Positions 11,283 to 30,071 are shown, numbered from the stretch's first letter. The stretch is DNA of 64,000 nt from Elusimicrobiota bacterium (GCA_027451985.1 DAIDHS010000008.1:10840-74839), one strand, 5' to 3'. Notes: generated by a model from the letters alone, not told the origin. A program made the numbers and translations.

Positions 11283-14200
11283 CTAGAACTGGAAGGTCAG
11301 GTTCGTGCCGAACTGGATGGAGATGTAGTCGTTGGTCTTGATGTAGCGGTCGAGCTGCGCGGCCATGGCGCCGTTCAGGGTCAGGCGCAGGTTCTGCGCG
11401 ATCTGGTAGTCCGCGCTGGTGTTGTAGCTGAAGAGCTCGAAGTCGTTGGCCGCGGTCACGGGGGAGTACTTGTAGTCCATGGAGAGCGTGTTGGTCCAGA
11501 TGACGCGGTTGATGAACAAAAGCGGCGACTTCATCAGGAGCGGGATGTAGAGCCCCTTGGGCATGCTGATGTCCGCGCGGCTGATGAGGCTTGGCGTGAC
11601 GTCCGTGTCGTTCTGGGAGTAGACCCCCAGCCCGTTCTCGTTGGTGTCGTGGTTATAGACGACCTTGGGCGTGAGCGAGAACTTGCCCGCGTTGAAGGTG
11701 GTCTGTACCGTGGCGTCCTGGTGGCCGGTGATCTGCGTGTTGACGTCCGCGACGAGGCTCGAGCTGTTGGAGTTGCGGATGTTGGCGCTGATAAGGCTGT
11801 CGTACTTCCTGAAGAGCATGCTGCGCAGGTCCATGCTGTAGGACTGATCCGTGGCCAGGCTCTGCCCCTCGGTCAAGGTGCGGTGCGCCGTGAAGCGAAA
11901 GTCCATCTGGGTGTTCTGCATCCAGGACTTGGTGTTCAGCATCTGTTCCAATTGGCTCATGTTCATGAGCAGGTCCGGCAGGGTCGTCGAGATGACGCGG
12001 GACGGCGTGTTGGTGGTCTGCCCCCGCTGCATGCTGTAGACGTAGTTGTTGGCGATGGAGAGGGTTTTTAGGGGCGCCCAGCGGCCTTTCAAGCCGTAGT
12101 TCTGCAGAGGCAGCCAGCGCTGGGTGGAGTTGACGGTGTCCTGCAGGGTCTGGGTCTGCAGGATGGCCGCGGGGTTGTTGGGGCGCAGGCCCGAGCGGAT
12201 CCAGAGATCTCCCATGGGGTTCAAGCCGCGCTCGACGTTGTTCCACACGTCGCCGTCTTGGAGCTGGTAGCCGTTGACGATGTCCAGGGTCTTCAAGAGC
12301 TTCGAGTTGGGCGCGATCTGGCTGAAGTCGATGGGAAGCGTGACGGCGCCGTTGGAGTTGCGCGTGATGGTCTGCAGGTCGCCGTAGCTGAAGGTGTAGG
12401 TCGAGAGGCCGACGACGATGCTGGTGGTGCTGACGTTCGCCTGCGAGATGGTATTGATGTTGTAGTTGACCTGCGGGTTAAGCCAGCGGTTGATGCGGAA
12501 ATTGGAGGTGAATCCCGCGGTCTGGTTCAAGGAGAGCGGGTAGCTGAAGTCCTGGCCTTGGCCGGAGCTGAAGTTCTGGCGCTTCTCGGTGACGGTGGTC
12601 AGCGCGTAGTTCGGATCGAAGGAGGATCCTGTCCAGGGCACGAAATCGAGCTTCGCGCCGTAGGTGTTGGTGATGTCCGTGGTGTTGTCGTTGCCGGGCT
12701 GTTCCAGGACTGCGAGCGAGTTGTAGTTGACGCTGTATTTGGAATAGGAGTAGGTCAGGTTCACGGTGCGCGGCAAAAAGTGGCTCTGCGTGGGCACGCC
12801 GTACTGCAGGGCCGAGGTGTAGGTCTGCCGGTCGTCGGTCCGCCCCAGGAGATCGTAGTTGATGACGTTGCGCGTGTAGCCCAAGGTCACCTGCGGCAGG
12901 GCGCCCAGGTTGAAGGTGCCCTGCGCGCTGCCGTTCCAGGTGGTGACCTTGCCTTCCTGCAGGAGGTTCACGAAATTGGACAGGCTGCCGGTCTGCGCGA
13001 CGTCGGGGGTGTTGACGACCGCGCGGGAGACGTTGAAGCTCATGGGAAAGTAGCGCAGGCGCGTGACGTTCATGTAGGCGTTGTCGAGCTCGTTGTCCTG
13101 GTTTGAGACCACCGAGGTCGGAGTCTGGAAGTTGCGGTCCACGTAGCGCGACTTGGCGCCGAAGGTGCCCCAATTGGGCACGGAGAAGTCGCCTTGGAAG
13201 TCGTAGGCGTTGCCCACGCGCGTGACGGGCTTGGCCAGGAAGATTTCGTCAAGGTAGAGGGATTCCGAGCCCTCGGCTCCTACGGCGCCGCCGGGCGGGG
13301 CGGTCAAGTGCCAGTACTGCGACGGCCCGGTGGGCTGGGCGTTGGCGTCGAAGGTGTAGCTGGAAAGCTTGACGCCGGCCACCAACTCCGAGACCTGCTG
13401 GAGGTTGGGCACGCCGCTGCTGACGATGACGGTTCCCGGCGGATCCGATCCGTCCGCGCTCCAGCTCTGCGCGACGCGGAAGGCGTTCAAGAGCTGATCG
13501 ACTTTGATGAGCTTCCAGCCCGTGAAGGTGATGGGCACGTCGACTTCGTAGAAGTTTTGGTCCGTGCCGGCGCGCAGGAAGAAGATGTTGTTGTGGCAGT
13601 CCGCGTTGCCGCTGGCGCAGGTGGCGCTGTTGCCGGCCTGCGCGTTTCCGTAGACGAGGAAATCCAACTCCTGGTGCTGGCTCATGTCGATGGCGGGCGT
13701 GAAGACCCGCTTGGTGACCACCACGGCGCTGACCGTGCTGCCGGTCGTGTTGTATTGGGGCTCCTCCACTGAAAGTCCGTTGTACTGCAATTCAAGCGCC
13801 TGCTCCTGGACGTTCTGGGTGTTGGACTGCTGCTGGAGGTTGGCCAAACTGCCGTAGAGTTCGTTGAAGACCGCCTCCGCGTCGCCGCCGGCGTTGTAGA
13901 TGGGGATGTAGTTGGGGTTGGTGGCGTTGTTGATTGGCTCGATAAGCATGTTTTCGCCCGCGATGGGAGGATTGTTGGTTGCGGGGTCGATGGGCGATCC
14001 GTTGAGCCAGGTCTGGCCCAACACCGCGATTTTGGCAAACTTCAAGATGCCGCTGGAGGCGTCGTTGTCGTTGTGCAGGACCGAGATGGTGATGTTCTTG
14101 ATGTTGGTCCAGGCGCTGGCGTTGGCGGTCGAGATGTTCAAGGGAATGTCCAGCACCATCCAGCCCGGGCCCGTGGTCGCGCCGTTGAAGTCGATGTTGT

Positions 14201-17183: not shown

Positions 17184-17415
17184 GGTCAGCACCGGATGGG
17201 GCCTTTTCGCTCTCGCCGCGCTGCGTCGCAAAGGCGCCGGCGCGCGGGGGCGGAAAAATCTTCCGCCCGCGAGGGGGAGGGTGGCGCGGCGTCGTTCAAT
17301 ATTTAGCTCACTCTGCTGCGCCGCGGAAAAGTCGCGAATCTTCGTCCGAACGGGAAAGAACCGGTTCCTCTCGCGCGCAAAAATATAAAATAAGTATAGC
17401 TGGGGTCCCGATCTT

Positions 17416-17430
17416 GTCAAGATCGAGGTT
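17416..17430. promoter_or_regulatory. 15-bp palindrome GATCTTGtCAAGATC about 28 nt upstream of the tal ATG, in the divergent tal / giant-OMP promoter region
   Basis: Read directly from the sequence. Adjacent AT-rich stretch AAAATATAAAATAAGTATAG lies between it and the giant-gene start. Confidence 0.3.
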
Positions 17431-17457
17431 GTTAAGACCGCCCCGCAGGAGGAATTC

Positions 17458-18603
17458 ATGGCTCAAACGAAATCCGCTCCGGCCGCCAAGGCCGCTAACC
17501 CGCTCAAGGCCCTTTCGGCCCTGGGCCAGTCGGTCTGGCTCGACTACATTCGGCGCGATCTGATGGCGACCGGCAAGCTCGAGCGTCTGGTGGACGAGGA
17601 CGGCCTGGCCGGGCTCACCTCCAACCCTTCGATTTTCGAAAAGGCCATCGCGGACAGCCCGGACTACGCGCCTACGCTGCGGGAGTTGAAAGCCAAGCCG
17701 GGCCTCTCCGCCATGGACATCTACGAGGCCGTGGCCATCCAAGACATCCGCGCCGCCGCCGACGCCCTGCGCCCGGTCTACGACAAGACCAAGCGCCGGG
17801 ACGGCTACGTCAGCATGGAGGTTTCCCCCTATCTCGCCCGCGACACCAAAGGCACGCTGGCCGAGGCGCGCCGGCTCTGGAAGGCCGTCGGCAAGGAAAA
17901 CCTCATGATCAAGGTGCCCGGGACGCCCGAAGGCATCCCCGCCATCGAGACCTTAATCTCCGAGGGCATCAACGTCAACGTGACGCTCCTGTTTTCCCGC
18001 GATCTCTACGCCAAGGCGGCCTGGGCCTACGTCTCGGGCCTGGAGAAGCGCGCGGCCAAGGGCCAGGAGGTCTCGGGCATCGCCGGCGTGGCCAGCTTCT
18101 TCGTCAGCCGCATCGACACCGCGGCCGACGCCAAGCTCTCCGAACTCGCCAAGGCGGGCGGCAAACGCGCGAAGACCGCCGAGGGCCTAATGGGCAAGGC
18201 TGCCATCGCCAACGCGAAGCTCGCCTACGCGCTTTACAAGGACATCATCGCGGACAAGCGCTGGACCGCGCTGGCCGCCAAGGGCGCCATGACCCAGCGC
18301 CTGCTCTGGGCCAGCACCAGCACCAAGAACCCCAAGTACCGGGACGTCATCTACGTCGAGGAGCTCATCGGCCGAGACACCGTCAACACGGTTCCGCCCG
18401 CGACCTTGGACGCCTTCCGCGACCACGGCCGCGCCTTCGCGACCTTGGACGCGGGCTTGGACGAGGCCAAAGCTCAGCTCTCGGCTTTGGAGGGACTGGG
18501 GATTTCCCTCAAGGCCATCACCGACGATGTCCTGTCCCAGGGCGTCAAGCTCTTCGCCGACGCCTTCGACAAGCTGCTCGCCGCCGTCGGCCGGCCGTCC
18601 TGA
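17458..18603 (+). CDS. tal: Transaldolase (long-type Tal)
   Basis: GQSVWLDYIRRDL, LTSNPSIFEKAI and MIKVPGTPEGIPAIETLISEGINVNVTLLFS contain the Schiff-base Lys region. AGGAGG RBS 7 nt upstream of the ATG. Confidence 0.85.
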   Translation: MAQTKSAPAAKAANPLKALSALGQSVWLDYIRRDLMATGKLERLVDEDGLAGLTSNPSIFEKAIADSPDYAPTLRELKAKPGLSAMDIYEAVAIQDIRAAADALRPVYDKTKRRDGYVSMEVSPYLARDTKGTLAEARRLWKAVGKENLMIKVPGTPEGIPAIETLISEGINVNVTLLFSRDLYAKAAWAYVSGLEKRAAKGQEVSGIAGVASFFVSRIDTAADAKLSELAKAGGKRAKTAEGLMGKAAIANAKLAYALYKDIIADKRWTALAAKGAMTQRLLWASTSTKNPKYRDVIYVEELIGRDTVNTVPPATLDAFRDHGRAFATLDAGLDEAKAQLSALEGLGISLKAITDDVLSQGVKLFADAFDKLLAAVGRPS

Positions 18604-20340: not shown

Positions 20341-21336
20341 ATGTCCGCGGCCATGATTCTCGCCGGAGACGTCGGAGGGACCAACACGCGCTTGGCGCTC
20401 TTTGCGGCCGGCGCGGCGCTTAAGCCCGCGGTGCTGGACATCTACCCCAGCCGCGACTATGACTCTTTGGGCGCGGCGCTCAAGGCTTTTGCCGCCAAGC
20501 ACGGCGCGGACGTCTCGTCCGCGTGCCTGGGCGTGGCGGGCCCGGTCAAGGACGGCCGCGTCGAGGCCACCAACCTGCCCTGGGACATCGACGCCCGCGC
20601 CCTCGCGCCCTTTCTGGGCGGCGCGCCGGTCCGGCTCTTGAACGATTTGGAGGCCAACGCCTGGGGCTTGGCCGAGCTTTCGGACAAGGACTTCGCGACG
20701 CTCAACCCCGGCGCGCCCGGCGCCGCAGGCCACCAGGCGCTCATCGCCGCGGGCACGGGCCTGGGCCAGGCCCTGCTCATCGACGCGGGCGGCCGCAAGA
20801 CGCCGGTCGCCACCGAGGGCGGCCACGCGGACTTCGCGCCGCGCACGGACGAGGAGGCCGCGCTGCTCGCCTTTTTGCGCGGAAAATTCGGGCGGGTGAG
20901 CTACGAACGGGTGGTCTCGGGCCCGGGCCTCGTCAACATCTATGATTTTTTGCGTCAAGTCCGGAAGATGCACGAGCCCGCCTGGCTCACGGCGGAGATG
21001 AAATCGGAAGATCCCTCGGCCGCGATTTCCAAGGCCGCCTTAGGTGGCCGCGCGGAGATTTGCGCGCGCGCGCTGGAGCTCTTCGTCGCCGTCTACGGCG
21101 CGCAGGCCGGAAACCTGGCGCTCTCGGTGCTCGCGCGCGGCGGGGTGTTCCTGGGCGGCGGCATCGCGCCGAAAATCTTGGGCGAGCTAAGAAAGCCCGC
21201 CTTCATGAGGGCCTTTCTGGACAAGGGCCGGATGAGCCCCGTGCTTGAAACGATTCCGGTGCGCGTGGTGCTAAACGACCACGCCGCGCTCTTGGGCGCG
21301 GCCCGCTGCGCGCTCCAAATGTCCGCCGCCCGCTGA
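20341..21336 (+). CDS. glk: Glucokinase (Glk family, EC 2.7.1.2-type)
   Basis: ILAGDVGGTNTRLALF is the N-terminal ATP-binding motif of bacterial glucokinase. LLNDLEANAWG and GTGLGQALL motifs. 331 aa. Confidence 0.8.
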   Translation: MSAAMILAGDVGGTNTRLALFAAGAALKPAVLDIYPSRDYDSLGAALKAFAAKHGADVSSACLGVAGPVKDGRVEATNLPWDIDARALAPFLGGAPVRLLNDLEANAWGLAELSDKDFATLNPGAPGAAGHQALIAAGTGLGQALLIDAGGRKTPVATEGGHADFAPRTDEEAALLAFLRGKFGRVSYERVVSGPGLVNIYDFLRQVRKMHEPAWLTAEMKSEDPSAAISKAALGGRAEICARALELFVAVYGAQAGNLALSVLARGGVFLGGGIAPKILGELRKPAFMRAFLDKGRMSPVLETIPVRVVLNDHAALLGAARCALQMSAAR

Positions 21337-22563
21337 TTCGGCCGTTTTTTTAGCGCTGTCCTGGGCGGCCACGCGCGCGGCCAAGACGAACTGTCCGAGC
21401 GCCAAAACTCCCACGCCGGCGCCCACGATGCCGAACGAGAGGTAGACGCCGGCGCCCAAAGCGAAGGCGGCGCCCATCAGGGCCTTGAGCAGGACCGAGG
21501 CCGCGTTGGCGCCCAGGCGCGAGGCGGCCGTGACGCCTCCGGCCGCGTCTAAGGGCGTCGCCGCCTGAAGCCGGCGCGCGAGAGAGAGCCTGGCCCCCGT
21601 GTTGGCCAGGGAGAAGAAAAACGCCGCGGCCATCATCACGGCCAGGCCGCCCGGAATCCAGCCCGCGGCCAAGCTGACGGAGCCGACGGCGCCAAGAGCG
21701 ATCCATTTCGCGGCGGAACCCAGGTCGGGAAACCGGCCGTAGAGAAGCGCCCCGCCGACGCCACCCAACGCGAAGGCGGCGCCCAGCCATCCCGCGGCGG
21801 CCGGCGCGTGGAGCAGCCCCTTCGCGAAAAACGCCGAGAAGAGCTTGCGCAAGGGGTAGAGATTGAGCAGCGCCAAGCCGACGCAGGCGAGCAGAAGCGT
21901 CTTGTCCGCAAGCGCCAGCCGCAGGCCCGAAAGGCTTCCGCCGGCGCGGGCTTGGCCCGGGCGCTCGGCCGGACGCGGACGCTGGGGAATGGCGGCGAAG
22001 ATGAGGGCGGCCGCGGCGAAGCCGACCGGGACGGCGGCCTGCGCGGCGATTCCTTTGAGCCAGAGCAGGAAGGCGCCCAGCATCAGGGGGCCGGCCACGC
22101 CGCCTAGTTCGTAGGCCAGTTCGTAGCGGGAGTTGATGAGGTCGAGCGTCTCGGGGTCGTTTTCGCCCAGCTCCAAGGGCACGGTGTGCACCGCGGTGTC
22201 CGTAAATCCCCGCACCAAGGCGTCGAGCGTGTAGGCGGCCATGGCGCGGCCCAGCGTGAGGACCCCGGCCGCCCAGGCGAGCGGAATGAGCGCCAGGGCC
22301 GCGGCGCGCAGGATCGTCGAGAGAATCAGGAGCCGGCGCGCGCCGATGCGGTCGGCGGGCCAGCCGCCCGCGAAGGTCCCCGCCATGTGCACCGCGGTGT
22401 CGAAGGCGGCGAAGAGCGCCGCGTCGCCGAAGGAACGCGAGAGCTTTAAGATGAGCAGCGGCTGGGCCAGATGGAGCGCGCTGTTGGCGAGCTCGGAGAC
22501 GAAGACGCCGCCCAGCAGGCCGCCCAGAGAAACGCGTTTTTGCGCGGCGGCTTCAGGAGCCAT
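21271..22563 (-). CDS. MFS transporter, paralogous to the MFS domain of the upstream fusion protein. Its 3' end overlaps the convergent glk 3' end by 66 nt.
   Basis: About 12 predicted transmembrane segments. Shared motifs with the neighbouring fusion: LLILKLS, LALIPL, NSRYELAYELGG, YPLRKLFSAFFAK, LLYGRF. Confidence 0.7.
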   Translation of the reverse strand: MAPEAAAQKRVSLGGLLGGVFVSELANSALHLAQPLLILKLSRSFGDAALFAAFDTAVHMAGTFAGGWPADRIGARRLLILSTILRAAALALIPLAWAAGVLTLGRAMAAYTLDALVRGFTDTAVHTVPLELGENDPETLDLINSRYELAYELGGVAGPLMLGAFLLWLKGIAAQAAVPVGFAAAALIFAAIPQRPRPAERPGQARAGGSLSGLRLALADKTLLLACVGLALLNLYPLRKLFSAFFAKGLLHAPAAAGWLGAAFALGGVGGALLYGRFPDLGSAAKWIALGAVGSVSLAAGWIPGGLAVMMAAAFFFSLANTGARLSLARRLQAATPLDAAGGVTAASRLGANAASVLLKALMGAAFALGAGVYLSFGIVGAGVGVLALGQFVLAARVAAQDSAKKTAESAGGGHLERAAGRAQERGVVV

Positions 22564-25500
22564 GGCCGCCGGCTTTCTCCATGGCCGCGAGCTTTTTGAG
22601 GTAGCGCGCGTGCGCGGCGGCGATTTCGTCCCTAATGATGAGCGCGGCGTCGGTCAAGGCGTCCCAGGAGGACTCCAGGTGCGCCTCGATGCCCTCGGGC
22701 GATCCTTTGACCGAAAGCGCGTGGGCGCGGCCCAACTGCGTGCCCACGGCGTAGACGAAATCCTCCTGCTGCTCCTTGTCGAGCATCTTCTTCATCTTGG
22801 CGTTCTGCGGCTGAATCTGCCGCACGTAGTACTCGACGCCGTCCAAGGCCGCGAAGCCGGGGCGCTCCTCCCAGCCGGGAGCGAGGAGATTGCCCGCCTC
22901 GATCATGCGGCGGCCCTGCGAGGGGTACGGGTTCGTGAACCAGCGCGTGTCGGGATCGGCCCGGACTTGCTTGAAGTTGAGGAAAATCCGGTCCAGCCCC
23001 GACTTCGGATTCTTGGGCGCCAAGACGGCGAGGTAGATGCTCCGAAAGCCCATCGAGCCTTGCCCGCGGCCGGCCTCCTCGACGACGTAGTCGTCCAGCA
23101 AGGACTCTTCGCCGCGGTTTTCCAAGTAGCCGCGCAGGAGCGTTTGGATTTTGGGATCGGAGGGCGGCAGCGGATCGGCCCGCATCTCCTGGGTCCAGCC
23201 TTTCTCCGCGGCGAGGTAGGCGTCGGTCGAGGATTCGTCCTTCTTGGGCTCCTTGTCCTTCAAGGCGCGCGCCTCGGAGAACGGACGGTCGGGGTGGCGC
23301 AGGCCATGAAGATAGCCCTTCTTCATTTGGCGCAGAACGTGGCCGGACAAGAGCCCTTTGGCGGGCTTTTTCTGGCGCAGGGAGACCGAAACCATCAGCC
23401 GGGCCAGGTCCCAGGCGTAGGGCCCCAGGCGCGAGCGGTCGAAGTCGACCATGGCCGCGCCGCGCGCGGACTTGGCGTAGTTGTCAACGTGGGGCGAGCC
23501 GTGTAGGAAAGCCTGCGGCATGGCCGAGAGGTCCATGAGTTGGGCGAAGCGCTCCTGCATGGGCAGAAGCATGTTGCGGAAGTAGAAGTGGACGCCGCGC
23601 TTGGCGTGCTTGTAGTTCTCCTGAATGTTCGGCGCGTCGCCGGCGGGGTCTTTGTCGAAAAGATTGGCGCCTTGGGCGGGCGCGTCCTTGCGCTTGTAGG
23701 CCTCGAGCGGGCCCAGGACCTTGCCCGCGCGCTCGGAAACCTGGCGGCGCAGGCTCTCCCGGTCCTGCCGCGCGTCTAAGATCTCGAAGCCGAACTCCTC
23801 GGCCTGCCGGTCGTAGGAGTCCGCCACGCGGGACTGGAAAATCCGGAAATTCTCCGCGTCGTCCTGGGCGAAACTCATGTCGCGGCCGACCGCGTAGTAG
23901 TTCTGCCCCAGAACCGTCGCCCGCGGGCCGTCCTCGGCGAAGTCCTCGGAAAGTTTGAGCCGGTCCTCGGTCCGCGCCAGCACGCGCCCGATGGCCGTCT
24001 CGACCGGCAGGCGGAAATAGAAGGTCAGGTCCGGGCGGAGGACCGAGTCGTAGAGACGGCGCAGCCAGAGCGGGTCGTTGCCGCGCACCGAATCGCGGGC
24101 CAAGGCGGTGTAGAAGTAGCGGTCGGAGAGGACGATGGAGCCTTCCCGCAGCGCCGGAAGGATGACGTTCTCCAGCCGATCGGAAAGGTCCGCGGCGTTG
24201 AGCGCGGCGAAGGAGGCGGGGGTGAGCGTGCGCTCGCGCTTGGCCTTCTTGACGACCTCCGAGACGAGCTCCGAGGAGTTCCACCGCGTGGTGACGACCT
24301 TGGCGCCCTGAGCCTCGAGCGACTCCCGGAGCATCTCCAGCTGCGTGGACTTGCCCGAGCCGTCCAAGCCTTCGACCACGATGAGCCGGCCGGGGAGCCC
24401 GTGCGCGGAGAAATTTTTAGGCGCCGCAGCCGGGCGCGCCGCGGCCACGACGCCTGCCAAGGCGACGGCCGCCAGCCGGCGCGAGAGCCAAAGCTGGGAG
24501 GCGGCGACCAGGCCCAAGCCCAGACCGACGGCCATGAAGGCGTGGACCGGAGACGCGAAGGCGAAGGCCAGGCCCACGCCGAACTTGAGCGCCGCGGACA
24601 TCAGGTTGCCGGAAAATCGCGTCAGGCCCATCACCGAGCCTTCGGCGCCGTAAGGAATGTTCGACTGCAGCGTCGAGGCGACGGAAATCCGGGACATGAC
24701 GTTGGTCATGGCGAAGACCAGGCACCCTAAGGCCATGGGCAAAAACGCGTGCGGCGCCATGGCCGCGGCGAAGGCCAGCACGCCGCCGGCGCCCCACTTG
24801 AGCCAGGCGGGCGCCGGGATTTTTTTGTAGAGGCGGCCGTAGAGAAGGGAGCCCAGCACCCCGCCCAGTCCGAAGGCGCCCACGAGCCAGGCCGTGTCGT
24901 TGGGCGCACCCAGGATGTTTTTTGCGAAAAGTGCGGGCAGGACGCTCTTAAGCGGGTAGACCGTCACCAGCAGGGTCGCCAGCATGGCCAGCCGCAGTCC
25001 CGGGTTTTTGCCGATAAGGCGCAAGGAATTGAGGAAAGTTCCGTGCTCGATTTCCTGGCCGGGCTCCAGAATCCGATCCGCGCGGCCGCGCGGCATCAGG
25101 AAGAAAAGACCCGAAGCCGCGGCGAATGCGGCGGGGATCATCCAATTGGCCGCGGCAAGCCCCGTGAGAGAGAGAAGCGCGCCCATCAAGAACGGCCCCG
25201 AGAGCCCGCCCAACTCGAAGGCGGTCTGATAGCGGGCGTTGAGCTTGTCCAGGGCCGGTTTGTTTTTGCCCACCAGGGCCATGGGCGCCGTGTTGCGGGC
25301 GGTGTCGGCGACGCCGCGGATGAGGGAGTCGGCGAGATAGACGCCCAGAATGGGAGCCAGCCCCAGGCCGCCGGTCCAGAAAAGAGGAATGAGGGCCAAC
25401 GTCGCGGCGCGCCCGGCCGCGGCGGCGGCCAAAAGGGTCTTGGGATGGATGTGCCTGGCCAGCCGCCCTCCGACGAGAGTGCCGAGCGCGTCCATCCCCC

Positions 25501-26311
25501 CGGCCAAGGCGGTGGCGAAGCCCACCGCGCTCAAGGCGCTGGTGAGCTTGAGCAGGACCAGGGGCAGGGCGACCTGCAGGGCGTTGGCGGCCATTTGGCT
25601 CATGAAGATGCCGGTCAGGTAGTGCCAGGCTTTTGGCGCGGCGCCTTCGGGTGCGGAGGGGGACTCCGCGGGGACGGCCTTTGCCGCGCCGCCGCCGCTT
25701 GATGCATCTGCGGGCAAAAGACCGGACGCCGGGGCGCCGGAAAGCGCGTCTTGCGCGGCCGGCGCGCCGACGGCGATGGCTTGCGTCGGCTCCGGGGACA
25801 CCGTGAAATCCGCGCGGTTCCGATCCGACTCCGGCGACGCGGGCTTGGAAACGAGTCTTCGGGCGATTTTGCCCAGCGCGGCCAAGCGCTGGATGGCGCC
25901 GGCTTGGCGGCCGTTCTTAGAAGCCTTGGCCGATGAAGGGCGGCTTAAAAGGGCTCTTCGGACTGACTCTTTTGCCGCCGCGCGCGGCAAGGTCTCGGCG
26001 GCGGACGCCGAGCCTGCAGACGCGGCCTTTGAGGCGGCCTGCGCCTGAGCGCGCTTGGGCGCGGCGATTTGAGGAAGGACTTCGGATGTTTGGGCGGGAA
26101 GATTGGGAATTTGGCCGTATTCGAGTCCCGCCGGATCGAGTTCAACGGCGTCCAGCGGGGACGCCATGGTGTTGAGGGAGACGACGTTGACTTCGACGGG
26201 TTGCGCGGCGGATCCGCCGCCGTTTTCTTCGACTTGGGCGCACAGGGGCTGGGCGAATATCCCGAAAAAGTAGAGCGCGGCGGCGGCCAGGCGCAGCGGC
26301 TTTAGAGCCAT
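22553..26311 (-). CDS. Multidomain fusion: signal peptide, ~230-aa Ala/Pro/Ser-rich extracytoplasmic region, 12-TM MFS transporter, thymidylate-kinase-like P-loop domain, and a C-terminal protein-kinase-like (APH/DUF2252-type) phosphotransferase domain
   Basis: ATG at 26311 gives MALKPLRLAAAALYFFGIFAQPLCAQ. The MFS region is paralogous to the downstream MFS. LIVVEGLDGSGKSTQ and LSDRYFYTALARD are the TMK P-loop and DRY motifs. The C-terminus has LHGSPHVDNYA (Brenner-like HGxxHxxN) and VDFDRSRLGPYAWDLARL (DFD plus the APH-type motif). The start overlaps the upstream phosphoesterase stop. Confidence 0.7.
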   Translation of the reverse strand: MALKPLRLAAAALYFFGIFAQPLCAQVEENGGGSAAQPVEVNVVSLNTMASPLDAVELDPAGLEYGQIPNLPAQTSEVLPQIAAPKRAQAQAASKAASAGSASAAETLPRAAAKESVRRALLSRPSSAKASKNGRQAGAIQRLAALGKIARRLVSKPASPESDRNRADFTVSPEPTQAIAVGAPAAQDALSGAPASGLLPADASSGGGAAKAVPAESPSAPEGAAPKAWHYLTGIFMSQMAANALQVALPLVLLKLTSALSAVGFATALAGGMDALGTLVGGRLARHIHPKTLLAAAAAGRAATLALIPLFWTGGLGLAPILGVYLADSLIRGVADTARNTAPMALVGKNKPALDKLNARYQTAFELGGLSGPFLMGALLSLTGLAAANWMIPAAFAAASGLFFLMPRGRADRILEPGQEIEHGTFLNSLRLIGKNPGLRLAMLATLLVTVYPLKSVLPALFAKNILGAPNDTAWLVGAFGLGGVLGSLLYGRLYKKIPAPAWLKWGAGGVLAFAAAMAPHAFLPMALGCLVFAMTNVMSRISVASTLQSNIPYGAEGSVMGLTRFSGNLMSAALKFGVGLAFAFASPVHAFMAVGLGLGLVAASQLWLSRRLAAVALAGVVAAARPAAAPKNFSAHGLPGRLIVVEGLDGSGKSTQLEMLRESLEAQGAKVVTTRWNSSELVSEVVKKAKRERTLTPASFAALNAADLSDRLENVILPALREGSIVLSDRYFYTALARDSVRGNDPLWLRRLYDSVLRPDLTFYFRLPVETAIGRVLARTEDRLKLSEDFAEDGPRATVLGQNYYAVGRDMSFAQDDAENFRIFQSRVADSYDRQAEEFGFEILDARQDRESLRRQVSERAGKVLGPLEAYKRKDAPAQGANLFDKDPAGDAPNIQENYKHAKRGVHFYFRNMLLPMQERFAQLMDLSAMPQAFLHGSPHVDNYAKSARGAAMVDFDRSRLGPYAWDLARLMVSVSLRQKKPAKGLLSGHVLRQMKKGYLHGLRHPDRPFSEARALKDKEPKKDESSTDAYLAAEKGWTQEMRADPLPPSDPKIQTLLRGYLENRGEESLLDDYVVEEAGRGQGSMGFRSIYLAVLAPKNPKSGLDRIFLNFKQVRADPDTRWFTNPYPSQGRRMIEAGNLLAPGWEERPGFAALDGVEYYVRQIQPQNAKMKKMLDKEQQEDFVYAVGTQLGRAHALSVKGSPEGIEAHLESSWDALTDAALIIRDEIAAAHARYLKKLAAMEKAGGHGS

Positions 26312-26958
26312 GAATCTTTCCGCCGGTAGATTTTCCGTGCGGGGACGCTCACGAGGCGTCGCTCGGGAAGGACGAGCGCGGTCAAGCGCCCGCCGTAGAC
26401 GCAGCCGGTGTCCAAGCCCACGGCGTTCTGGCGCAGGACGGGTTCGCGCCGCGACCAATGTCCGAAAACCGCCAGGCGCCCGCCGCGGTAGCGGGCATAC
26501 CAGGGCTCACCGCTTGGGGCGAGGCGGCGCAGGGTGATCAAATCCCAATCGGACTGCCGAACCAAAGGCCTGCCGGGATCGAAGCCAGCGTGCAGTACGA
26601 GGTAGTCATTTTCCCGAATCCAAAGCGGCCAGGAGGCGATGAAATTCCGGTAGCGAGCGCGCCGGCCGCTGAGTTGAATCCATGTCGCCGCGTCGAGAGT
26701 TTTGCCGTCGGGCAGTTCGGCGCCCCGCTTGCGGGATAAAAACCTCCGCTCGTGGTTTCCCAGCACGCAGCGGAGGTTCGGGGTTCCCATGGCCCAGTCC
26801 AGCACGCCCCGGCTGTCGGGGCCCTTGCCGATAAGGTCGCCTACGCTGATGAGCTTGTCCTGGGACGTGGCGCGGACCGCGCGTAGGAGGTCCTGCAATT
26901 CGTCCAAGCAACCGTGCACGTCCCCGAAAATTATGGTGCGGGCGTCCGCGCTGGCCAT
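26302..26958 (-). CDS. Metallophosphoesterase (calcineurin-like; ApaH/PrpE-type Ser/Thr phosphatase or diadenosine-polyphosphatase-like)
   Basis: IIFGDVHGCLDEL, SVGDLIGKGPDS and VLGNHE motifs. ATG 26958 sits 13 nt downstream of a TATAAT, giving a short or leaderless transcript. The track ORF begins at 27000. Confidence 0.7.
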   Translation of the reverse strand: MASADARTIIFGDVHGCLDELQDLLRAVRATSQDKLISVGDLIGKGPDSRGVLDWAMGTPNLRCVLGNHERRFLSRKRGAELPDGKTLDAATWIQLSGRRARYRNFIASWPLWIRENDYLVLHAGFDPGRPLVRQSDWDLITLRRLAPSGEPWYARYRGGRLAVFGHWSRREPVLRQNAVGLDTGCVYGGRLTALVLPERRLVSVPARKIYRRKDSWL

Positions 26959-27086
26959 GGCTCTGGAGTTATTATAAGCCGTCAGCGGGATTAACGCCAT
27001 AACGGGCGTATAAAATTCGGGTAAAGCCCGCGTGACCGCGTGTAACGGCCATGTGACGTCCGGCCGCTTTATGGCATACTTGAGCC

Positions 27087-27884: not shown

Positions 27885-28817
27885 TTAAGCCAGGCAAATC
27901 TCCGTCAGCTGATCGAGCGTCATGGTCCAGCCCTGCCGCGCGCCCTGGGTTGCCTGCTCGTTGATGAGCGTCAGCACGGCGAAGGTCTGAACCACATTGA
28001 TTTTGGTGCGTCCGCCGACGTCCTCGAAGGATATCTCGGTCCGGATGTTGTCTTTCGGGTCGCCCGGAAATTCGCCCGTCCAGACGATGCGCGATTGCGG
28101 CGCGACTTCCCGGTAAATTCCGGAGAAGTCATGCCTCTTCCCGTCGGGAAAAACCATCGCCATGGCGAAGCCGCCGCCCGAGCGAAAGTCCATTTTGTCC
28201 ACGCTGAGCGTCAGCGGCCGCGGCGCGAACCATTTCTTCAACTGTTCCGGATCGGCCCAAGCCCGCCACACGCGCTTAAGCGGCGCGTCAATGACGCGCT
28301 CAAGCCGCAGCTCGAAGCCGGGCGTGCTCGGCTTTCCCCCGGAGATTTTCGATTCGGCGACGTGCGCGTCGAGCCGCGCGAGCGTCTGCTCGCCGCCTTT
28401 GATGGCCCCATGAACCTTGACGACGAAATCGCGGTCTTCGGGTTTTTCGAATACGTGATGGATGCTCACCTCCGTCTTGCCGCCGAGGTTCTTCAAAGTC
28501 CAGGTCATCTGGAAACTGATGCCCCGTTCTCCTTTTTTCCCGCCGGCGACGGCGTATACGATGCGGTTCGGCGGCGCGATGTCCAGGAATTGAGTCGTGT
28601 TCGGATATTCGGCGCCGTCTGGCCCGATCATGACGTGCTTCCAGAGGCCGCCCGGCTTAAAAGAGAACTCGCTCGTTTTGTTCCTGAAGCCATCCGGGCC
28701 CCACCAGGCGTCTAGCTGCTTGGGATCCGAAAGCGCCTTCCAGACCCGCTCCTGCGGCGCGTCCACGACGCGCGAAATGAAGATTTCCCGATTGGATGCT
28801 TCCTTTGTCTTGGTCAT
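27885..28817 (-). CDS. Tandem SRPBCC (Aha1/AHSA1-like, polyketide-cyclase-fold) domain protein. Start ATG overlaps the arsR stop as ATGA.
   Basis: Two repeats, each with a VWKALSDPKQLDAWWGP / VWRAWADPEQLKKWF type motif characteristic of the Aha1-like SRPBCC family. ATG at 28817 gives MTKTKEAS. Confidence 0.65.
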   Translation of the reverse strand: MTKTKEASNREIFISRVVDAPQERVWKALSDPKQLDAWWGPDGFRNKTSEFSFKPGGLWKHVMIGPDGAEYPNTTQFLDIAPPNRIVYAVAGGKKGERGISFQMTWTLKNLGGKTEVSIHHVFEKPEDRDFVVKVHGAIKGGEQTLARLDAHVAESKISGGKPSTPGFELRLERVIDAPLKRVWRAWADPEQLKKWFAPRPLTLSVDKMDFRSGGGFAMAMVFPDGKRHDFSGIYREVAPQSRIVWTGEFPGDPKDNIRTEISFEDVGGRTKINVVQTFAVLTLINEQATQGARQGWTMTLDQLTEICLA

Positions 28818-29143
28818 GGATTCTCCTTGAGATATTTTTCCAGGGCGTCTAGGCGCCGGTTCCACAGGGCGCGCTGGCCCTCGATCCAGCCCTGGGCTTC
28901 TTTCATCCGCTCGGCCTCGATCCGGCAGACGCGTTCGCGGCCCCGCTTGCGGCGGGACATGAGCCCGGCTTGCTCCAAAATGCGCAGGTGCTTGCTGATG
29001 GCCGGCGCCGAGACCTTGTGCGGCCGGGCCAGCTCCGCGACCGTGGTTTCGCCCGAGGCCAGGCGCGCCAGGATGCCGCGGCGGATGGGGTGCGCCAGCG
29101 CGCCGAAGGCAAGGTCTAGCCGGTAGCGACTATATTTAACCAT
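28814..29143 (-). CDS. ArsR/SmtB-family winged-helix transcriptional repressor
   Basis: HPIRRGILARLASGETTVAELARPHKVSAPAISKHLRILEQAGL is the canonical ArsR HTH. 109 aa. The start codon lies inside a perfect 30-bp palindrome. Confidence 0.75.
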   Translation of the reverse strand: MVKYSRYRLDLAFGALAHPIRRGILARLASGETTVAELARPHKVSAPAISKHLRILEQAGLMSRRKRGRERVCRIEAERMKEAQGWIEGQRALWNRRLDALEKYLKENP

Positions 29144-29229: not shown

Positions 29230-29580
29230 GTGGCCATGGGACGCCGCTCCACTGCGGCCTCGGGGTCCGCGACCGCCGACGCCGTGTTCAAGGCCTTGGC
29301 CGACGCGGGGCGCCGCCGGCTCTTGGACCGCCTGCGCGTCAAGAGCGGCCGCACGCTTAACGAGCTCTGCGAGGGCATGAGGATGAGCCGCCAAGCGGTC
29401 ACCAAGCATCTCGTTCAGCTTGAAGAAGCCGATTTGGTCGTCAGCCGGCGGATGGGGCGGAAAAAACTGCACTATCTTAATCCCGTGCCCATTCACGACA
29501 TCGCCCGGCGCTGGATCCGCCCGTTCGAGAGCGGACGGCTTGCGGCGCTGCGGGAACTTAAGGATCAACTGGAGGGATAG
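29230..29580 (+). CDS. ArsR/SmtB-family transcriptional regulator. GTG at 29230 or ATG at 29236. Probably leaderless.
   Basis: ADAGRRRLLDRLRVKSGRTLNELCEGMRMSRQAVTKHLVQLEEADL HTH. A TTGACA-N18-TATACT promoter ends 1 nt before the GTG. Confidence 0.7.
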   Translation: MAMGRRSTAASGSATADAVFKALADAGRRRLLDRLRVKSGRTLNELCEGMRMSRQAVTKHLVQLEEADLVVSRRMGRKKLHYLNPVPIHDIARRWIRPFESGRLAALRELKDQLEG

Positions 29581-29582
29581 CC

Positions 29583-30071
29583 ATGGCCGAAACCTTCGTC
29601 TACGCGACGTACATCCGCACAACGCCGGAGAAGCTTTGGGAAGCCTTGACCAATGGCGACTTTAGCGAGAAGTATTGGATGGGCTTTCGCATCGAGGTCG
29701 AGCAGAAAGCTGGAGGACGCCTGCGTATCCTGCCGCCCAAGGGCATGGAGTGGCAAGGCGACCACGCGGGCGAAGTCTTGGCCTGCGAGCCCTGCCGCAA
29801 GCTGGTCTACACGTGGAATACGAAGCCTAAGGATGCCCCTGAAATCACCAAAAAGCGCAAGAGCCTTTCGCGCGTGACCTATGAGCTTACGCCCAACGGG
29901 GCCTTTGTGCGGCTGCGCCTCATTCATGAGAACCTGCTGCCGGAGGACATCGAGAAAAATCCCGATACCTTCCGCGGCGTCAACAACGGCTGGCCCGCGG
30001 TTTTGAGCAGCTTGAAGAGCCTCTTGGAGACCGGCGAAGCGCTGGTTCTGCGCTCCGACTGCGGCAAATAA
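29583..30071 (+). CDS. SRPBCC (Aha1-like) single-domain protein, co-operonic with the ArsR above (3-nt gap)
   Basis: YIRTTPEKLWEALTNGDFSEKYW matches the SRPBCC motif of the divergent tandem-SRPBCC gene. 162 aa. Confidence 0.65.
   Translation: MAETFVYATYIRTTPEKLWEALTNGDFSEKYWMGFRIEVEQKAGGRLRILPPKGMEWQGDHAGEVLACEPCRKLVYTWNTKPKDAPEITKKRKSLSRVTYELTPNGAFVRLRLIHENLLPEDIEKNPDTFRGVNNGWPAVLSSLKSLLETGEALVLRSDCGK

Follow-up and report, generated by a model that had tools for sequence, protein, structure and literature searches.

The window analysed here, a stretch of 64,000 nucleotides from an uncultured Elusimicrobiota bacterium, carries on its minus strand three overlapping genes, identified from its open reading frames, which we designate PE, BIG and MFS2. 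PE (26302..27000, minus strand) encodes an ApaH-like (ALPH) calcineurin-type metallophosphoesterase with a longest open reading frame of 232 aa; because orthologues suggest a start at Met15 (position 26958), the product probably has 218 aa. BIG (22553-26311, minus strand) encodes a protein of 1252 aa from an ATG at 26311. Its mechanically called frame reaches a TTG at 26458, 49 codons beyond that ATG, but the orthologues begin at the same Met and the ATG is therefore taken as the start. MFS2 (21271..22563, minus strand) encodes a 430-aa permease paralogous to the MFS part of BIG, with neither signal peptide, tail nor enzyme domains. Consecutive genes share a few bases, 10 nt between the end of PE and the beginning of BIG (ATGGCTCTAA) and 11 nt between the end of BIG and the beginning of MFS2, and the three-gene operon proposed in the initial annotation of this locus is confirmed.

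Architecture of the fusion protein and its neighbours

Pfam searches placed four families within the single BIG polypeptide and in one frame: MFS_1 (aa 233-573, 6e-21, 75 bits against a threshold of 33.4), Thymidylate_kin (aa 646-784, 5e-26), APH (aa 850-976, 8e-7, 29.5 bits against 23.2) and DUF2252 (aa 1053-1235, 6e-19, 68.9 bits against a gathering threshold of 22.3). The five-part architecture of the initial annotation is borne out, and the motifs it quoted are present, namely EGLDGSGKS at 647, DRY at 730-732, HGSPHVDN at 937-944 and DFD at 956-958. In the AF2 model each part folds, with a mean pLDDT of 90; the placement of the domains relative to one another is not predicted with confidence (pTM 0.53). 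The same architecture recurs in about 25 species-level Elusimicrobiota MAGs that were obtained in independent studies, as well as in numerous metagenome contigs, with identities of 33-90%.

An artefact, whether a chimeric assembly or read-through from a missed frameshift or scarce stops in 68% GC DNA, could be suspected from the 49 additional codons of the mechanical frame and from one complete genome in which the signal-peptide and tail part lies in a different frame. The colinear recurrence of the fusion, the placement of all four families within one frame and the folding of every part make this explanation practically untenable, and the comparative data refute it. With the same architecture found in many independent MAGs, BIG is, on comparative grounds, a genuine fusion, neither an assembly artefact nor the product of the hidden frameshift that could have split it. 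Database names for this architecture are limited to 'dTMP kinase', 'MFS transporter, partial' and 'DUF2252 family protein', and the sources checked contain no curated description of it, in agreement with the original remark that it was not recognised as a known architecture.

BIG opens with a Sec-type signal-peptide-like segment (aa 1-26, 26234..26311, minus strand; MALKPLRLAAAALYFFGIFAQPLCAQ), which is kept in orthologues and in all full-length fused proteins from bacteria; sites of the AxA type occur across the family, for example AWA before A and ALA before Q. It is followed by a low-complexity Ala/Ser/Pro-rich tail (aa 27-228, 25628..26233, minus strand; A 24%, S 11% and P 10% over aa 27-232) that shares the reading frame of the MFS in the different species and is poorly conserved except for one linear motif, ExDRxRxDF (ESDRNRADF at aa 161-169). 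The MFS domain (aa 229-623, 24443..25627, minus strand) is a DHA3/EntS-like permease of 12 TM helices with N-in/C-in topology. Its AF2 helices fit a 12-TM bundle in which TM12 runs on into the cytoplasm, and, in loops read from the translation, the even loops and C-terminus hold 26 Lys and Arg residues against 2 in the odd loops. Among NCBIfam models its closest resemblance is to the DHA3/EntS/Tap efflux families, at scores below the cut-offs (TIGR00900 for DHA3, 83 bits against 319.6; EntS, 37.6 bits against 324); residues invariant across the family include R301, R332, D336, R541 and R565. BIG thus carries two cytoplasmic domains behind a canonical 12-TM MFS of the efflux type (DHA3-like). 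Of the signal peptide and periplasmic tail claimed initially, segment and tail are real and conserved, but the periplasmic location is not established: since the MFS behind them is N-in with 12 TM helices, a cleaved signal peptide and periplasmic tail are inconsistent with the topology, and the conserved signal peptide ahead of this MFS remains a topological puzzle.

The paralogy of the second permease holds, as MFS2, also an MFS_1 member in Pfam, is 40% identical to the BIG MFS over 402 aa (E 2e-54). PE matches Metallophos (2e-14), and its best matches agree with the ApaH-type assignment made for it: among solved structures it is closest to 2qjc, a putative diadenosine tetraphosphatase of T. 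brucei (1e-32), with the Pnkp phosphatase 4j6o and ApaH coming next. Its translation shows GDVHG, GDLIGKGP and GNHE and has no signal peptide. Because PE carries these metallophosphoesterase motifs and falls below the ApaH cut-offs of NCBIfam (PRK00166, 111 bits against 176; TIGR00668, 66.8 bits against 222.85), we classify it by sequence as ApaH-like only. Across the 25 Elusimicrobiota loci surveyed, fusion, ALPH and MFS2 form a core triad that is conserved in 24, with PE orthologues (54-56% identity) adjoining the fusion gene and MFS2 orthologues downstream of the fusion or ALPH gene in the same proportion.

The P-loop domain and the genomic context of its relatives

The P-loop domain of BIG (aa 641-866, 23714..24391, minus strand) belongs to the thymidylate-kinase superfamily and carries GLDGSGKS at 648-655, D730-R731-Y732 with the DRY Arg731, and an 'LKLSED' insertion in its lid. 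The initial annotation described it as dTMP-kinase-like, and databases label BIG a 'dTMP kinase', while the domain belongs to the clade of PPK3 and is not plausible as a kinase of dTMP or of other nucleoside monophosphates. PPK3 is a recently described archaeal polyphosphate kinase (Hofmann et al., J Biol Chem 2026; PMC12995831), a heteromer of a catalytic subunit, cPPK3 (Saci_2019 of Sulfolobus acidocaldarius, SaPPK3; homologue STK_15430, PDB 2plr/4nzy/4rzx/5h70), and a regulatory paralogue, rPPK3, encoded alongside. According to the same report it strongly prefers the direction polyP + ADP -> ATP, has a conserved, positively charged cleft for polyP, and is encoded near PPX, SixA, CHAD, NUDIX and Pst genes (PMC12995831).

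The top solved relative of the BIG domain is STK_15430 (2plr/5h70; 2.5e-40, 141 bits, 48.5% identity), whereas the best true TMK, that of T. thermophilus, reaches 75 bits and 40% identity. The signatures WNSS, xAxD[FL]xxR and DRYxYTAxARDxxRG are common to STK_15430 and all of the roughly 100 nearest domains, drawn from 1.84 billion proteins. Throughout this WNSS/PPK3 clade, BIG included, the dTMP-site positions differ from those of TMK (TREPGG to TRWNSS, F.ADR to NAADL, AYQ to ARD, or AYQG to ARDS), and the alignment shows none of the canonical dTMP-binding residues (REPGGT, F..ADR, S..AYQ) in BIG. Clade-specific basic residues are present (K688, K691, R692, R712, R739), and the DRX arginine is retained as in the catalytic PPK3 subunit and unlike the regulatory one. 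Given the bit scores and the clade signature, we assign the domain to the PPK3 (WNSS) clade with its catalytic motifs intact and not to true TMKs, a placement by bit scores, identity and shared signature that is made through STK_15430, the homologue of Saci_2019. The dTMP-kinase equivalog TIGR00041 of NCBIfam scores 92.8 bits on BIG, over its cut-off of 83.25, which counts against a polyP reading; evidently, this model also catches the PPK3 clade. PPK3 as described is heteromeric, yet a tblastn search of the 64-kb window with STK_15430 and the T. thermophilus TMK returned the BIG domain only, with no second TMK-like gene that could represent rPPK3, and the neighbourhood survey showed no such paralogue in related loci either; this also counts against the polyP reading.

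The genomic context of the relatives points to polyphosphate/phosphate metabolism and away from the salvage of nucleotides or sugars. PPK1 is found in 16 of the 25 Elusimicrobiota loci (after MFS2 on the same strand in 14, and on the opposite strand in two, L025 and L028), CYTH in 13 of 25 and a SixA-like His_Phos_1 gene, by Pfam label, in many. One lineage combines CHAD, CYTH and PPK1, and another has OlsA/B and PhoU-PstBACS together with a phytase-like gene. In relatives that lack the PPK3 domain the MFS-PKL combination persists (PKL being the kinase-like domain described below), with PPK1 nearby. Elsewhere the same P-loop subfamily is fused to SPX, InPase, HD/Ppx-GppA_III and NUDIX domains. 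The SPX phosphate-sensor domain occurs in one protist relative, that of Ancoracysta twista, where it matches the XPR1 and Vtc4 SPX structures, and in metagenomic relatives. Among the relatives with SPX are P0017 and the 1234-aa protein P0029, which is colinear with BIG through MFS, PPK3 and PKL (E 4e-138) and has a divergent N-terminal SPX; Pfam finds no SPX in BIG. Near the locus itself, in the window as in its closest clade (L012-L014), there is no PPK1, CYTH, CHAD or Pst, so its polyP link is made by orthology, and this absence weighs against the polyP reading.

These results bear on the scheme first proposed for the operon, a vectorial salvage in which the MFS would import a compound of nucleoside, nucleotide or phospho-sugar type that a genuine dTMP/NMP kinase and an APH-like kinase would phosphorylate on arrival, with the phosphoesterase acting upstream. 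We consider it very improbable, as the dTMP-contact positions are replaced throughout the clade, the nearest relatives that have been characterised, PPK3 subunits, were shown to be without dTMPK activity (PMC12995831), and the neighbourhoods and fusions of the relatives hold polyP and phosphate genes rather than those of nucleotide salvage. The underlying idea of transport coupled to cytoplasmic phosphotransfer is possible, with a different chemistry.

The permuted kinase-like domain and its transporter partners

The C-terminal part of BIG (aa 885-1252, 22556..23659, minus strand) is a circularly permuted protein-kinase-like (PKL) domain of a DUF2252 subfamily characterised by HG[NS]PHxDN...DFD. 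The catalytic segment of the C-lobe, with HGSPHVDN at 937 and DFD at 956, precedes the N-lobe sheet, with GRGQGSMG at 1081-1088 and K1114, and the order of strands and helices in the AF2 model agrees. The ATP/Mg-binding residues are retained (Gly-rich loop, Lys1114, Asn944, Asp956), and the subfamily has many invariant Arg, His and Lys residues. Ser939 occupies the catalytic-base position, as originally noted; the suggestion that this substitution marks a regulatory remnant is not supported, because Asn (46) or Ser (37) stands there in all 83 aligned subfamily members and Asp in none (0/83), a family trait. The alignment likewise shows no conserved alphaC Glu. The absence of a general base, which hydroxyl-phosphorylating APH/ChoK-type kinases need, is a further argument against salvage.

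The partner of this domain is always a transporter, as a fused MFS, an adjacent MFS gene or, in other phyla, an adjacent TauE, which in 48 of the 55 loci outside Elusimicrobiota follows downstream at a median distance of 53 nt. In these neighbourhoods outside Elusimicrobiota the PKL-TauE pairs have no polyP genes around them and do not include the phosphatase. Since the pairs occur without polyP genes, PKL function may be more general than polyP, a further point against the polyP reading.

Two tandem kinase domains behind a single permease could also form a polyP-powered small-molecule kinase, in which PKL would phosphorylate the MFS or TauE cargo, a non-phosphate metabolite, and the PPK3-like domain would only regenerate ATP, polyP being the effective donor. 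The strong preference of PPK3 for ATP formation (PMC12995831), the retention of MFS-PKL near PPK1 in relatives without the PPK3 domain, the pairing of PKL with transporters across phyla and a partial structural similarity to small-molecule kinases are all compatible with this arrangement. We nevertheless regard it as unlikely, if the most plausible of the alternatives, considering the family-wide loss of the catalytic Asp, the non-conserved alphaC Glu, the lack of polyP enzymes beside PKL-TauE outside Elusimicrobiota and the absence of a candidate substrate pathway from all the neighbourhoods.

A regulated efflux pump was considered as well, in which BIG would export a drug, siderophore or metabolite through a DHA3-type MFS. 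Its kinase-like domains, together with the phosphoesterase of the PPP family, would act as a kinase/phosphatase switch or nucleotide sensor on BIG and MFS2, and polyP chemistry would play no part. The efflux-type affinities of the MFS, the matches of PE to lambda-type Ser/Thr phosphatase models (NF008516, 55.8 bits; 1g5b) and the low confidence of the modelled inter-domain arrangement would suit such a pump. We give it little credence, because a PKL that has lost the catalytic Asp is hardly expected to be an active protein kinase, the phosphatase is missing from the PKL-TauE pairs, and both the catalytically intact PPK3-clade domain and the PPK1/CYTH/CHAD/Pst neighbourhoods with SPX fusions would be left unexplained.

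A candidate phosphate/polyphosphate module and its counterparts

Based on the membership of the P-loop domain in the PPK3 clade, the neighbourhoods and fusions of its relatives, the constant pairing of PKL with transporters and the conserved triad, we favour, on balance, a role of the operon as a membrane-bound module for phosphate/polyphosphate homeostasis rather than nucleotide salvage. By homology, through the STK_15430 homologue of the characterised enzyme, the PPK3-like domain would work at the membrane's inner face and catalyse the reversible reaction polyP(n) + ADP <-> polyP(n-1) + ATP. Conservation and gene pairing suggest that PKL binds ATP and acts on, or in concert with, the anion that its partner transporter carries, either handing phosphate to a base-independent acceptor (an anionic, phosphate-type oxygen) or serving as a nucleotide-dependent gate. 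From the neighbourhoods, the ApaH-like phosphoesterase may trim a phosphoanhydride that arises as product or by-product (Np4N, p4A or short polyP), MFS2 may carry a related flux, and the set would work in related genomes with PPK1, CYTH triphosphatase, CHAD, SixA-like phosphatase and Pst-PhoU. Candidate cargoes are Pi, PPi, short polyP or an organophosphate. DHA3 MFS and TauE/SafE proteins are mostly exporters, and this shared tendency of both partner families makes export or relief of phosphate anions slightly more likely than their uptake. Also to be set against the polyP reading are the resemblance of the MFS to DHA3 and to no known phosphate-transporter family, the inability of a long polymer to thread an alternating-access MFS, and the conflict of the conserved signal peptide and tail with the predicted topology.

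Compared with PPK3, the BIG domain shares the thymidylate-kinase fold, the P-loop, the DRX arginine, the clade signature (WNSS, xAxDFxDR, DRYxYTAxARDxxRG), the clade-specific basic residues and the loss of dTMP-site residues, and its relatives lie in polyP neighbourhoods (PPK1, CYTH, CHAD, SixA-like, Pst). PPK3 differs in being a free subunit of about 210 aa, whereas the BIG domain is part of a 1252-aa membrane protein of a bacterial (Elusimicrobiota) host, has no rPPK3 nearby and carries an extra 'RxEGRLxLSED' insertion in its lid; fusions of PPK3 with MFS, SPX or PKL are not mentioned in PMC12995831. PKL scores above the gathering threshold of DUF2252 (PF10009, a family of unknown function) and likewise has its C-lobe motifs (catalytic loop, DFD) before the N-lobe sheet and Lys, but its subfamily has HG[NS]PHxDN instead of xGDxHxxN, lacks the catalytic Asp and a conserved alphaC Glu, is always linked to transporters and shows the many invariant basic residues. 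PE shares the PPP-family metal-binding motifs of the ApaH/ALPH proteins (T. brucei 2qjc, E. coli ApaH, the Pnkp phosphatase domain), and differs in its length (218-232 aa against 280), its scores below the equivalog cut-offs and its conservation beside the PPK3-PKL fusion.

LplT-Aas and other MFS-enzyme fusions similarly tie a permease covalently to a cytoplasmic cargo-handling enzyme, although there it is an acyltransferase/acyl-ACP synthetase and in BIG phosphotransferases (the NCBIfam Aas model scores only 15 bits). The yeast VTC complex (Vtc1/2/3/4), an SPX-controlled polyP polymerase-translocase, offers an analogy only, as a membrane-embedded polyP enzyme whose Vtc2/3/4 subunits, like some BIG-family relatives, have an N-terminal SPX; its catalytic domain is a triphosphate-tunnel metalloenzyme and its membrane part a dedicated channel, in contrast to the P-loop kinase and MFS of BIG, with no sequence relationship and no Pfam match in BIG to CYTH/TTM catalytic or VTC membrane domains. 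The plant SPX-MFS protein PHT5/VPT1, a phosphate transporter of the vacuole, and the SPX-EXS exporter XPR1 resemble the relatives P0029, P0031 and P0036, in which SPX precedes about 10-12 TM helices, those of P0029 aligning with the BIG MFS. PHT5 has no kinase domains and belongs to another MFS subfamily, while BIG is DHA3-like and has a signal peptide and tail in place of SPX; control by SPX, in this comparison, implies a role in phosphate homeostasis.

Operon, fusion protein and distribution

Three tightly packed minus-strand genes make up the operon, in a window of about 65% GC: an ApaH-like phosphoesterase gene (PE, 26302-27000), the gene for the fusion protein (22553-26311; 1252 aa counted from the ATG at 26311) and a separate MFS permease gene (MFS2, 21271-22563; 430 aa). 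The PE stop overlaps the start of the fusion gene by 10 nt, and the stop of the latter overlaps the MFS2 start by 11 nt. Since a divergent methyltransferase gene lies upstream and a convergent glucokinase gene, overlapping the MFS2 3' end, lies downstream, the unit consists of exactly these three genes. The longest PE reading frame begins 14 codons before the Met aligned with orthologue starts (M[KS]RTI[VI][FI]GDVHG); because relatives are annotated at 213-222 aa, the true start is probably at 26958. PE carries PPP-family metal motifs, matches Metallophos in Pfam and is closest to the T. brucei ApaH-like protein 2qjc (1e-32), the Pnkp phosphatase domain and ApaH, scoring under the ApaH equivalog thresholds; no signal peptide was found in it. 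Its family chemistry and position suggest that it may hydrolyse Np4N, p4A or short polyP.

Among the surrounding genes, glucokinase (20341-21336, plus strand) shares a 66-nt 3' overlap with MFS2 at 21271-21336 and belongs to a plus-strand block of transaldolase, phosphoglucose isomerase and glucokinase that is syntenic with three relatives' loci (L001-L003). A 2058-aa ORF (window 11283-17459, minus strand; no Pfam match at 1e-5) coincides with the only strong strand asymmetry of the window (GC skew +0.20, AT skew -0.18, 12-16 kb); L001 has a 1944-aa orthologue in the same place beside the transaldolase gene, also without Pfam hits. Just past the methyltransferase gene, two adjacent pairs of an ArsR/HTH_5-type regulator and an AHSA1/SRPBCC gene lie on opposite strands (27885-29143, minus; 29230-30071, plus), and L001 has them too.

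The initial annotation had read MFS, thymidylate-kinase-like and kinase-like domains in one polypeptide, and four Pfam families are indeed placed in the fusion protein: MFS_1 (aa 233-573), Thymidylate_kin (646-784), APH (850-976) and DUF2252 (1053-1235), the last two falling in a circularly permuted protein-kinase-like (PKL) domain. Every sequence motif that it listed is present, and the paralogy that it saw between the two permeases holds, with 40% identity (E 2e-54) between the MFS domain of the fusion and MFS2, itself an MFS_1 match. In the AF2 model of aa 221-1252 (mean pLDDT 90.2, pTM 0.53), the structure prediction proposed at that stage, each domain is predicted to fold confidently, and the arrangement between domains is not defined. 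The modelled helices over aa 229-623 fit a 12-TM bundle, in which TM12 reaches into the cytoplasm and is followed by a flexible linker of ~17 residues to the P-loop domain; the soluble half comprises 620 aa. Invariant arginines of the MFS family are R301 (TM3), R332, R541 and R565.

The N-terminus poses a topological puzzle. All complete bacterial fused members start with a textbook Sec signal peptide (K/R n-region, h-region of ~12 residues, Pro at -5/-6, AxA site), followed by a low-complexity tail of 150-230 aa whose sole conserved element is ExDRxRxDF. Read from the translation, the MFS domain of the fusion is canonically N-in, with 26 K+R in inside loops versus 2 outside, and MFS2 and the SPX-fused relatives have cytoplasmic N-termini. 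An exported tail before an N-in TM1 needs one more membrane crossing, so that signal peptide and topology contradict each other, and no additional crossing is visible between tail and TM1. Thus the signal peptide and Ala/Pro-rich tail described earlier are both present, but the 'periplasmic' location given to the tail clashes with the N-in permease and is unproven. A hydrophobic stretch at aa 607-631, considered as a 13th TM that would rescue the topology, is modelled as part of the cytoplasmic TM12 extension.

Homologues were sought with the C-terminal half; in a word-index query with the full-length 1252-aa protein, candidates drawn by the low-complexity tail crowded out the others, and just 3 clusters came back. 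Searched exhaustively with HMMER, 1.84 billion representatives contained 194 matches to aa 625-1252 below 1e-30. Full-length three-part proteins (1178-1318 aa) were recovered down to 33% identity. Smaller forms turned up as well: MFS-PKL proteins that lack the P-loop domain (~940-970 aa), P-loop-PKL proteins that are soluble (~560-600 aa) and PKL on its own (~360-380 aa). A scan of 185,579 species, with one genome per species, found the PKL subfamily in 109 genomes; 25 of the 80 loci kept are Elusimicrobiota-type, having PKL within a fused gene and MFS and/or PPK3 upstream of it wherever the contig extends that far. Close copies in Elusimicrobiota MAGs carry the NCBI name 'dTMP kinase', and the family as a whole bears automatic names only. 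This recurrence across the searches and the species scan makes the fusion real and recurrent, but rare, and we find it barely credible that the architecture is an artefact. Other MFS-TMK fusion families may occur, for example in Actinobacteria; our search for such families with an MFS plus PPK3 query returned only this Elusimicrobiota family.

On a complete Elusimicrobiota chromosome (CP096137.1; L004/L030), the signal peptide and tail lie in another frame than the MFS domain, and MFS2 and PPK1 are each broken into two pieces (affected parts at locus coordinates of about 9400-10000 and 12977-17177); either the operon is decaying, or the sequencing of GC-rich DNA introduced several frameshifts.

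The P-loop domain and its genomic context

The domain taken initially for a dTMP or nucleotide kinase has a different nearest relative. Its best PDB match is STK_15430 of Sulfurisphaera tokodaii (2plr/4nzy/4rzx/5h70; E 2.5e-40, 141 bits), labelled 'probable thymidylate kinase', compared with 75 bits for the best genuine thymidylate kinase (TMK) among all PDB sequences; the identities are 48.5% and 40%, respectively. STK_15430 is a structural homologue of the catalytic subunit of PPK3, the heteromeric polyphosphate kinase formed by Saci_2019 and Saci_2020 of S. acidocaldarius, both earlier annotated as thymidylate kinases (Hofmann et al., J Biol Chem 2026, PMC12995831). PPK3 is reversible, prefers the direction polyP + ADP -> ATP and is without dTMPK activity; its family does not conserve the residues that bind dTMP, polyP is proposed to bind in a basic cleft, and the regulatory subunit has lost the DRX arginine (PMC12995831).

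In an alignment of ~100 nearest domains, the dTMP-site motifs of TMK are replaced in both the fusion protein and STK_15430: TREPGG by T[RE]WNSS, F[SA]ADRAEH by [NH]A[AT]D[LF]SDR, and DRYxDSSLAYQG by DRY[FI]YTA[LY]ARDSVRG. Basic residues specific to the clade (K691, R692, R712 and R739) are likewise present in the fusion protein, as is Arg731 of DRY. Judged by sequence, then, this 'thymidylate kinase' domain is PPK3-type, and the earlier reading of it is not supported. The database name arises because the NCBIfam dTMP-kinase equivalog TIGR00041 scores the domain at 92.8 bits, above its trusted cut-off of 83.25, so that PGAP-style pipelines will keep naming PPK3-type proteins and fusions 'dTMP kinase', a systematic mis-annotation that passes even the equivalog threshold. 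Unlike described PPK3, the fusion protein carries an additional insertion in its lid (RxEGRLxLSED; of poor order in the model) and has no regulatory paralogue gene nearby.

Gene neighbourhoods lend independent support to the PPK3-type assignment. Across the 25 Elusimicrobiota loci, the fusion occurs with the phosphoesterase gene (ALPH) and MFS2 in 24, with PPK1 in 16 (14 on the same strand after MFS2; L025 and L028 on the opposite strand), with a CYTH triphosphatase-type gene in 13, and in many with a SixA-like His_Phos_1 gene; four PPK1-less loci stop at a contig edge. Locus L011 reads fusion-ALPH-MFS2-PPK1, followed by CYTH together with a paired response regulator and PAS kinase; L008 has MFS-PKL, ALPH, MFS2, CHAD, CYTH, MGDG synthase, PPK1 and His_Phos_1; and L005 has MFS-PKL, a phytase-like gene, OlsA/OlsB and PhoU-PstBACS. 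Such neighbours are the partners named as typical of polyP kinases (PMC12995831). This support has a caveat: the window and L012-L014, the three relatives nearest to it, have the gene order ALPH-fusion-MFS2, with no polyP gene within reach; searched by tblastn with PPK1, CHAD, CYTH, SixA-like, PhoU, PstSCAB, OlsA/B, MGDG synthase and phytase-like proteins, the window gave no hits beyond the ALPH and MFS2 orthologues, and a Pfam scan of eight other large window ORFs gave no polyP-related match. The 189-aa gene after MFS-PKL in L008, considered as a detached TMK-like domain, encodes a signal-peptide, proline-rich protein.

A second independent line of support comes from fusions of the same P-loop subfamily elsewhere to InPase (inorganic-pyrophosphatase-like), HD/Ppx-GppA domain III, NUDIX and SPX. 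In phosphate-homeostasis proteins such as VTC, XPR1, PHO1 and Pho90, SPX is the module that senses inositol pyrophosphates. The protist Ancoracysta twista is the source of a soluble SPX-PPK3-PKL protein of 794 aa, whose N-terminus matches the XPR1 and Vtc3/Vtc4 SPX structures at E 3e-15 to 1e-7. SPX forms with a membrane domain come from metagenomic contigs, possibly of eukaryotic origin; one of them (P0029, 1234 aa) is colinear with the fusion protein from TM1 to the C-terminus (30% identity, E 4e-138), and where the latter has its signal peptide and tail it carries a divergent SPX-like domain instead.

Multidomain proteins of this WNSS/LSED P-loop subfamily include one with InPase + KOW (968 aa), one with HD/Ppx-GppA domain III (696 aa) and one with NUDIX (1006 aa), and the domain also lies inside two giant proteins, 1610 and 2575 aa long (P0047, P0044, P0153, P0049 and P0051; none of these architectures is characterised).

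As for function, the initial annotation was borne out only in part, its observation being confirmed. It had proposed vectorial salvage of a nucleoside/nucleotide-like or phospho-sugar substrate; the PPK3-type domain and the polyP/phosphate genes beside its relatives speak against this reading, and we consider nucleotide salvage very unlikely.

The permuted kinase-like domain and its transporter partners

The PKL domain is modelled with high confidence (AF2 pLDDT 94.5, pTM 0.91). DUF2252 has been published as having swapped N- and C-lobes, and the motif order in the fusion protein fits this: catalytic loop 937-944, DFD 956-958, and later the Gly-rich loop 1081-1088, beta3 K1114 and alphaC. Across 83 members the (near-)invariant residues are R912, H937, G938, P940, H941, N944, D956, F957, D958, R959, G963, P964, Y965, D968, Y1000, K1114, R1135, M1136, A1139, R1164, K1172, Q1192, G1194 and H1197. 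The position of the Brenner Asp holds Asn in 46 members, Ser in 37 and Asp in none, and no alphaC Glu is conserved among the 83. By these conserved residues, the ATP/Mg-binding set is kept in a basic-rich site, with the general base missing family-wide. This combination fits, short of proof, a nucleotide-binding domain that acts on, or senses, an anionic phosphate-type ligand. For a polyP-powered small-molecule kinase, the tandem of two kinase domains behind one permease would speak in favour and the missing base against; we hold that alternative to be unlikely.

The PKL subfamily is always paired with a transporter, MFS or TauE. It is fused to MFS in Elusimicrobiota; a separate MFS gene lies directly upstream of PKL in an Oligoflexales genome and one metagenome contig; and in Bacteroidota, Bdellovibrionota and Myxococcota a TauE/SafE-family gene follows PKL in 48 of 55 loci, on the same strand at a median distance of 53 nt. 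When the neighbours of PKL genes outside Elusimicrobiota were clustered, TauE was the only partner shared across phyla. In both partner families, most transporters carry anions or act in efflux. A regulated efflux pump would suit the latter membership; we rate this pump as quite improbable.

The stand-alone PKL + TauE pair (L039-L091) clusters in lineages with a predatory or gliding habit (Bacteriovoracaceae, Peredibacter, Halobacteriovoraceae, Sandaracinaceae, Cytophagales, Saprospiraceae), and Ancoracysta twista, the sole named eukaryotic carrier, is a predatory protist; the bias could reflect chance or ecology.

Functional reading and relation to known systems

Given what is documented here on architecture, operon structure, clade assignment, conservation and gene neighbourhoods, we lean modestly towards a membrane module of phosphate/polyP homeostasis as a general statement, and give much less credence to any specific coupling scheme. 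By homology, the P-loop domain would interconvert polyP and ATP/ADP at the membrane; conservation and pairing suggest that PKL would bind ATP and work on or with the anionic cargo of the transporter; and the context would place the fusion protein, with ALPH and MFS2, inside a phosphate/polyP homeostasis network. The leftover probability we assign to mechanisms other than those considered here.

A bolder reading, unlikely when taken as a whole, is that MFS-PPK3-PKL represents an unrecognised class of membrane-integrated polyP enzymes, coupling cytoplasmic polyP/ATP phosphotransfer to the movement of a phosphate-type anion, and that the base-less permuted PKL is a new kind of phosphotransferase for phosphate-type acceptors. 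On this reading, the proteins would be a functional analogue of the VTC complex made from entirely different parts, and, if the SPX-bearing contigs are eukaryotic, the family would be a candidate for a second eukaryotic polyP system. The parts are already known kinds (MFS, PPK3 clade, DUF2252, ALPH). Literature searches on SPX domains with thymidylate kinase and on MFS-TMK fusions found nothing relevant, and the searchable literature holds no description of these domains in combination, of the pairing rule between PKL and transporters, of the PKL subfamily without the base or of the SPX-bearing relatives. The constant MFS or TauE pairing of this subfamily gives DUF2252 its first functional context, and the 620-aa soluble half and the PKL domain (pLDDT 94) offer compact constructs to test.

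PPK3 itself is a recent definition (2024-2026), given for a soluble archaeal enzyme of two subunits that is said to be present in "a few bacteria" (PMC12995831). Here its catalytic clade forms part of a transporter, alongside an uncharacterised permuted kinase-like domain, in a fusion that ~25 Elusimicrobiota species carry and whose relatives bear SPX. Should the proposed homeostasis role be true, bacterial phosphate/polyP handling would be physically wired to membrane transport, an arrangement so far found, to our knowledge, only in the unrelated eukaryotic VTC complex.
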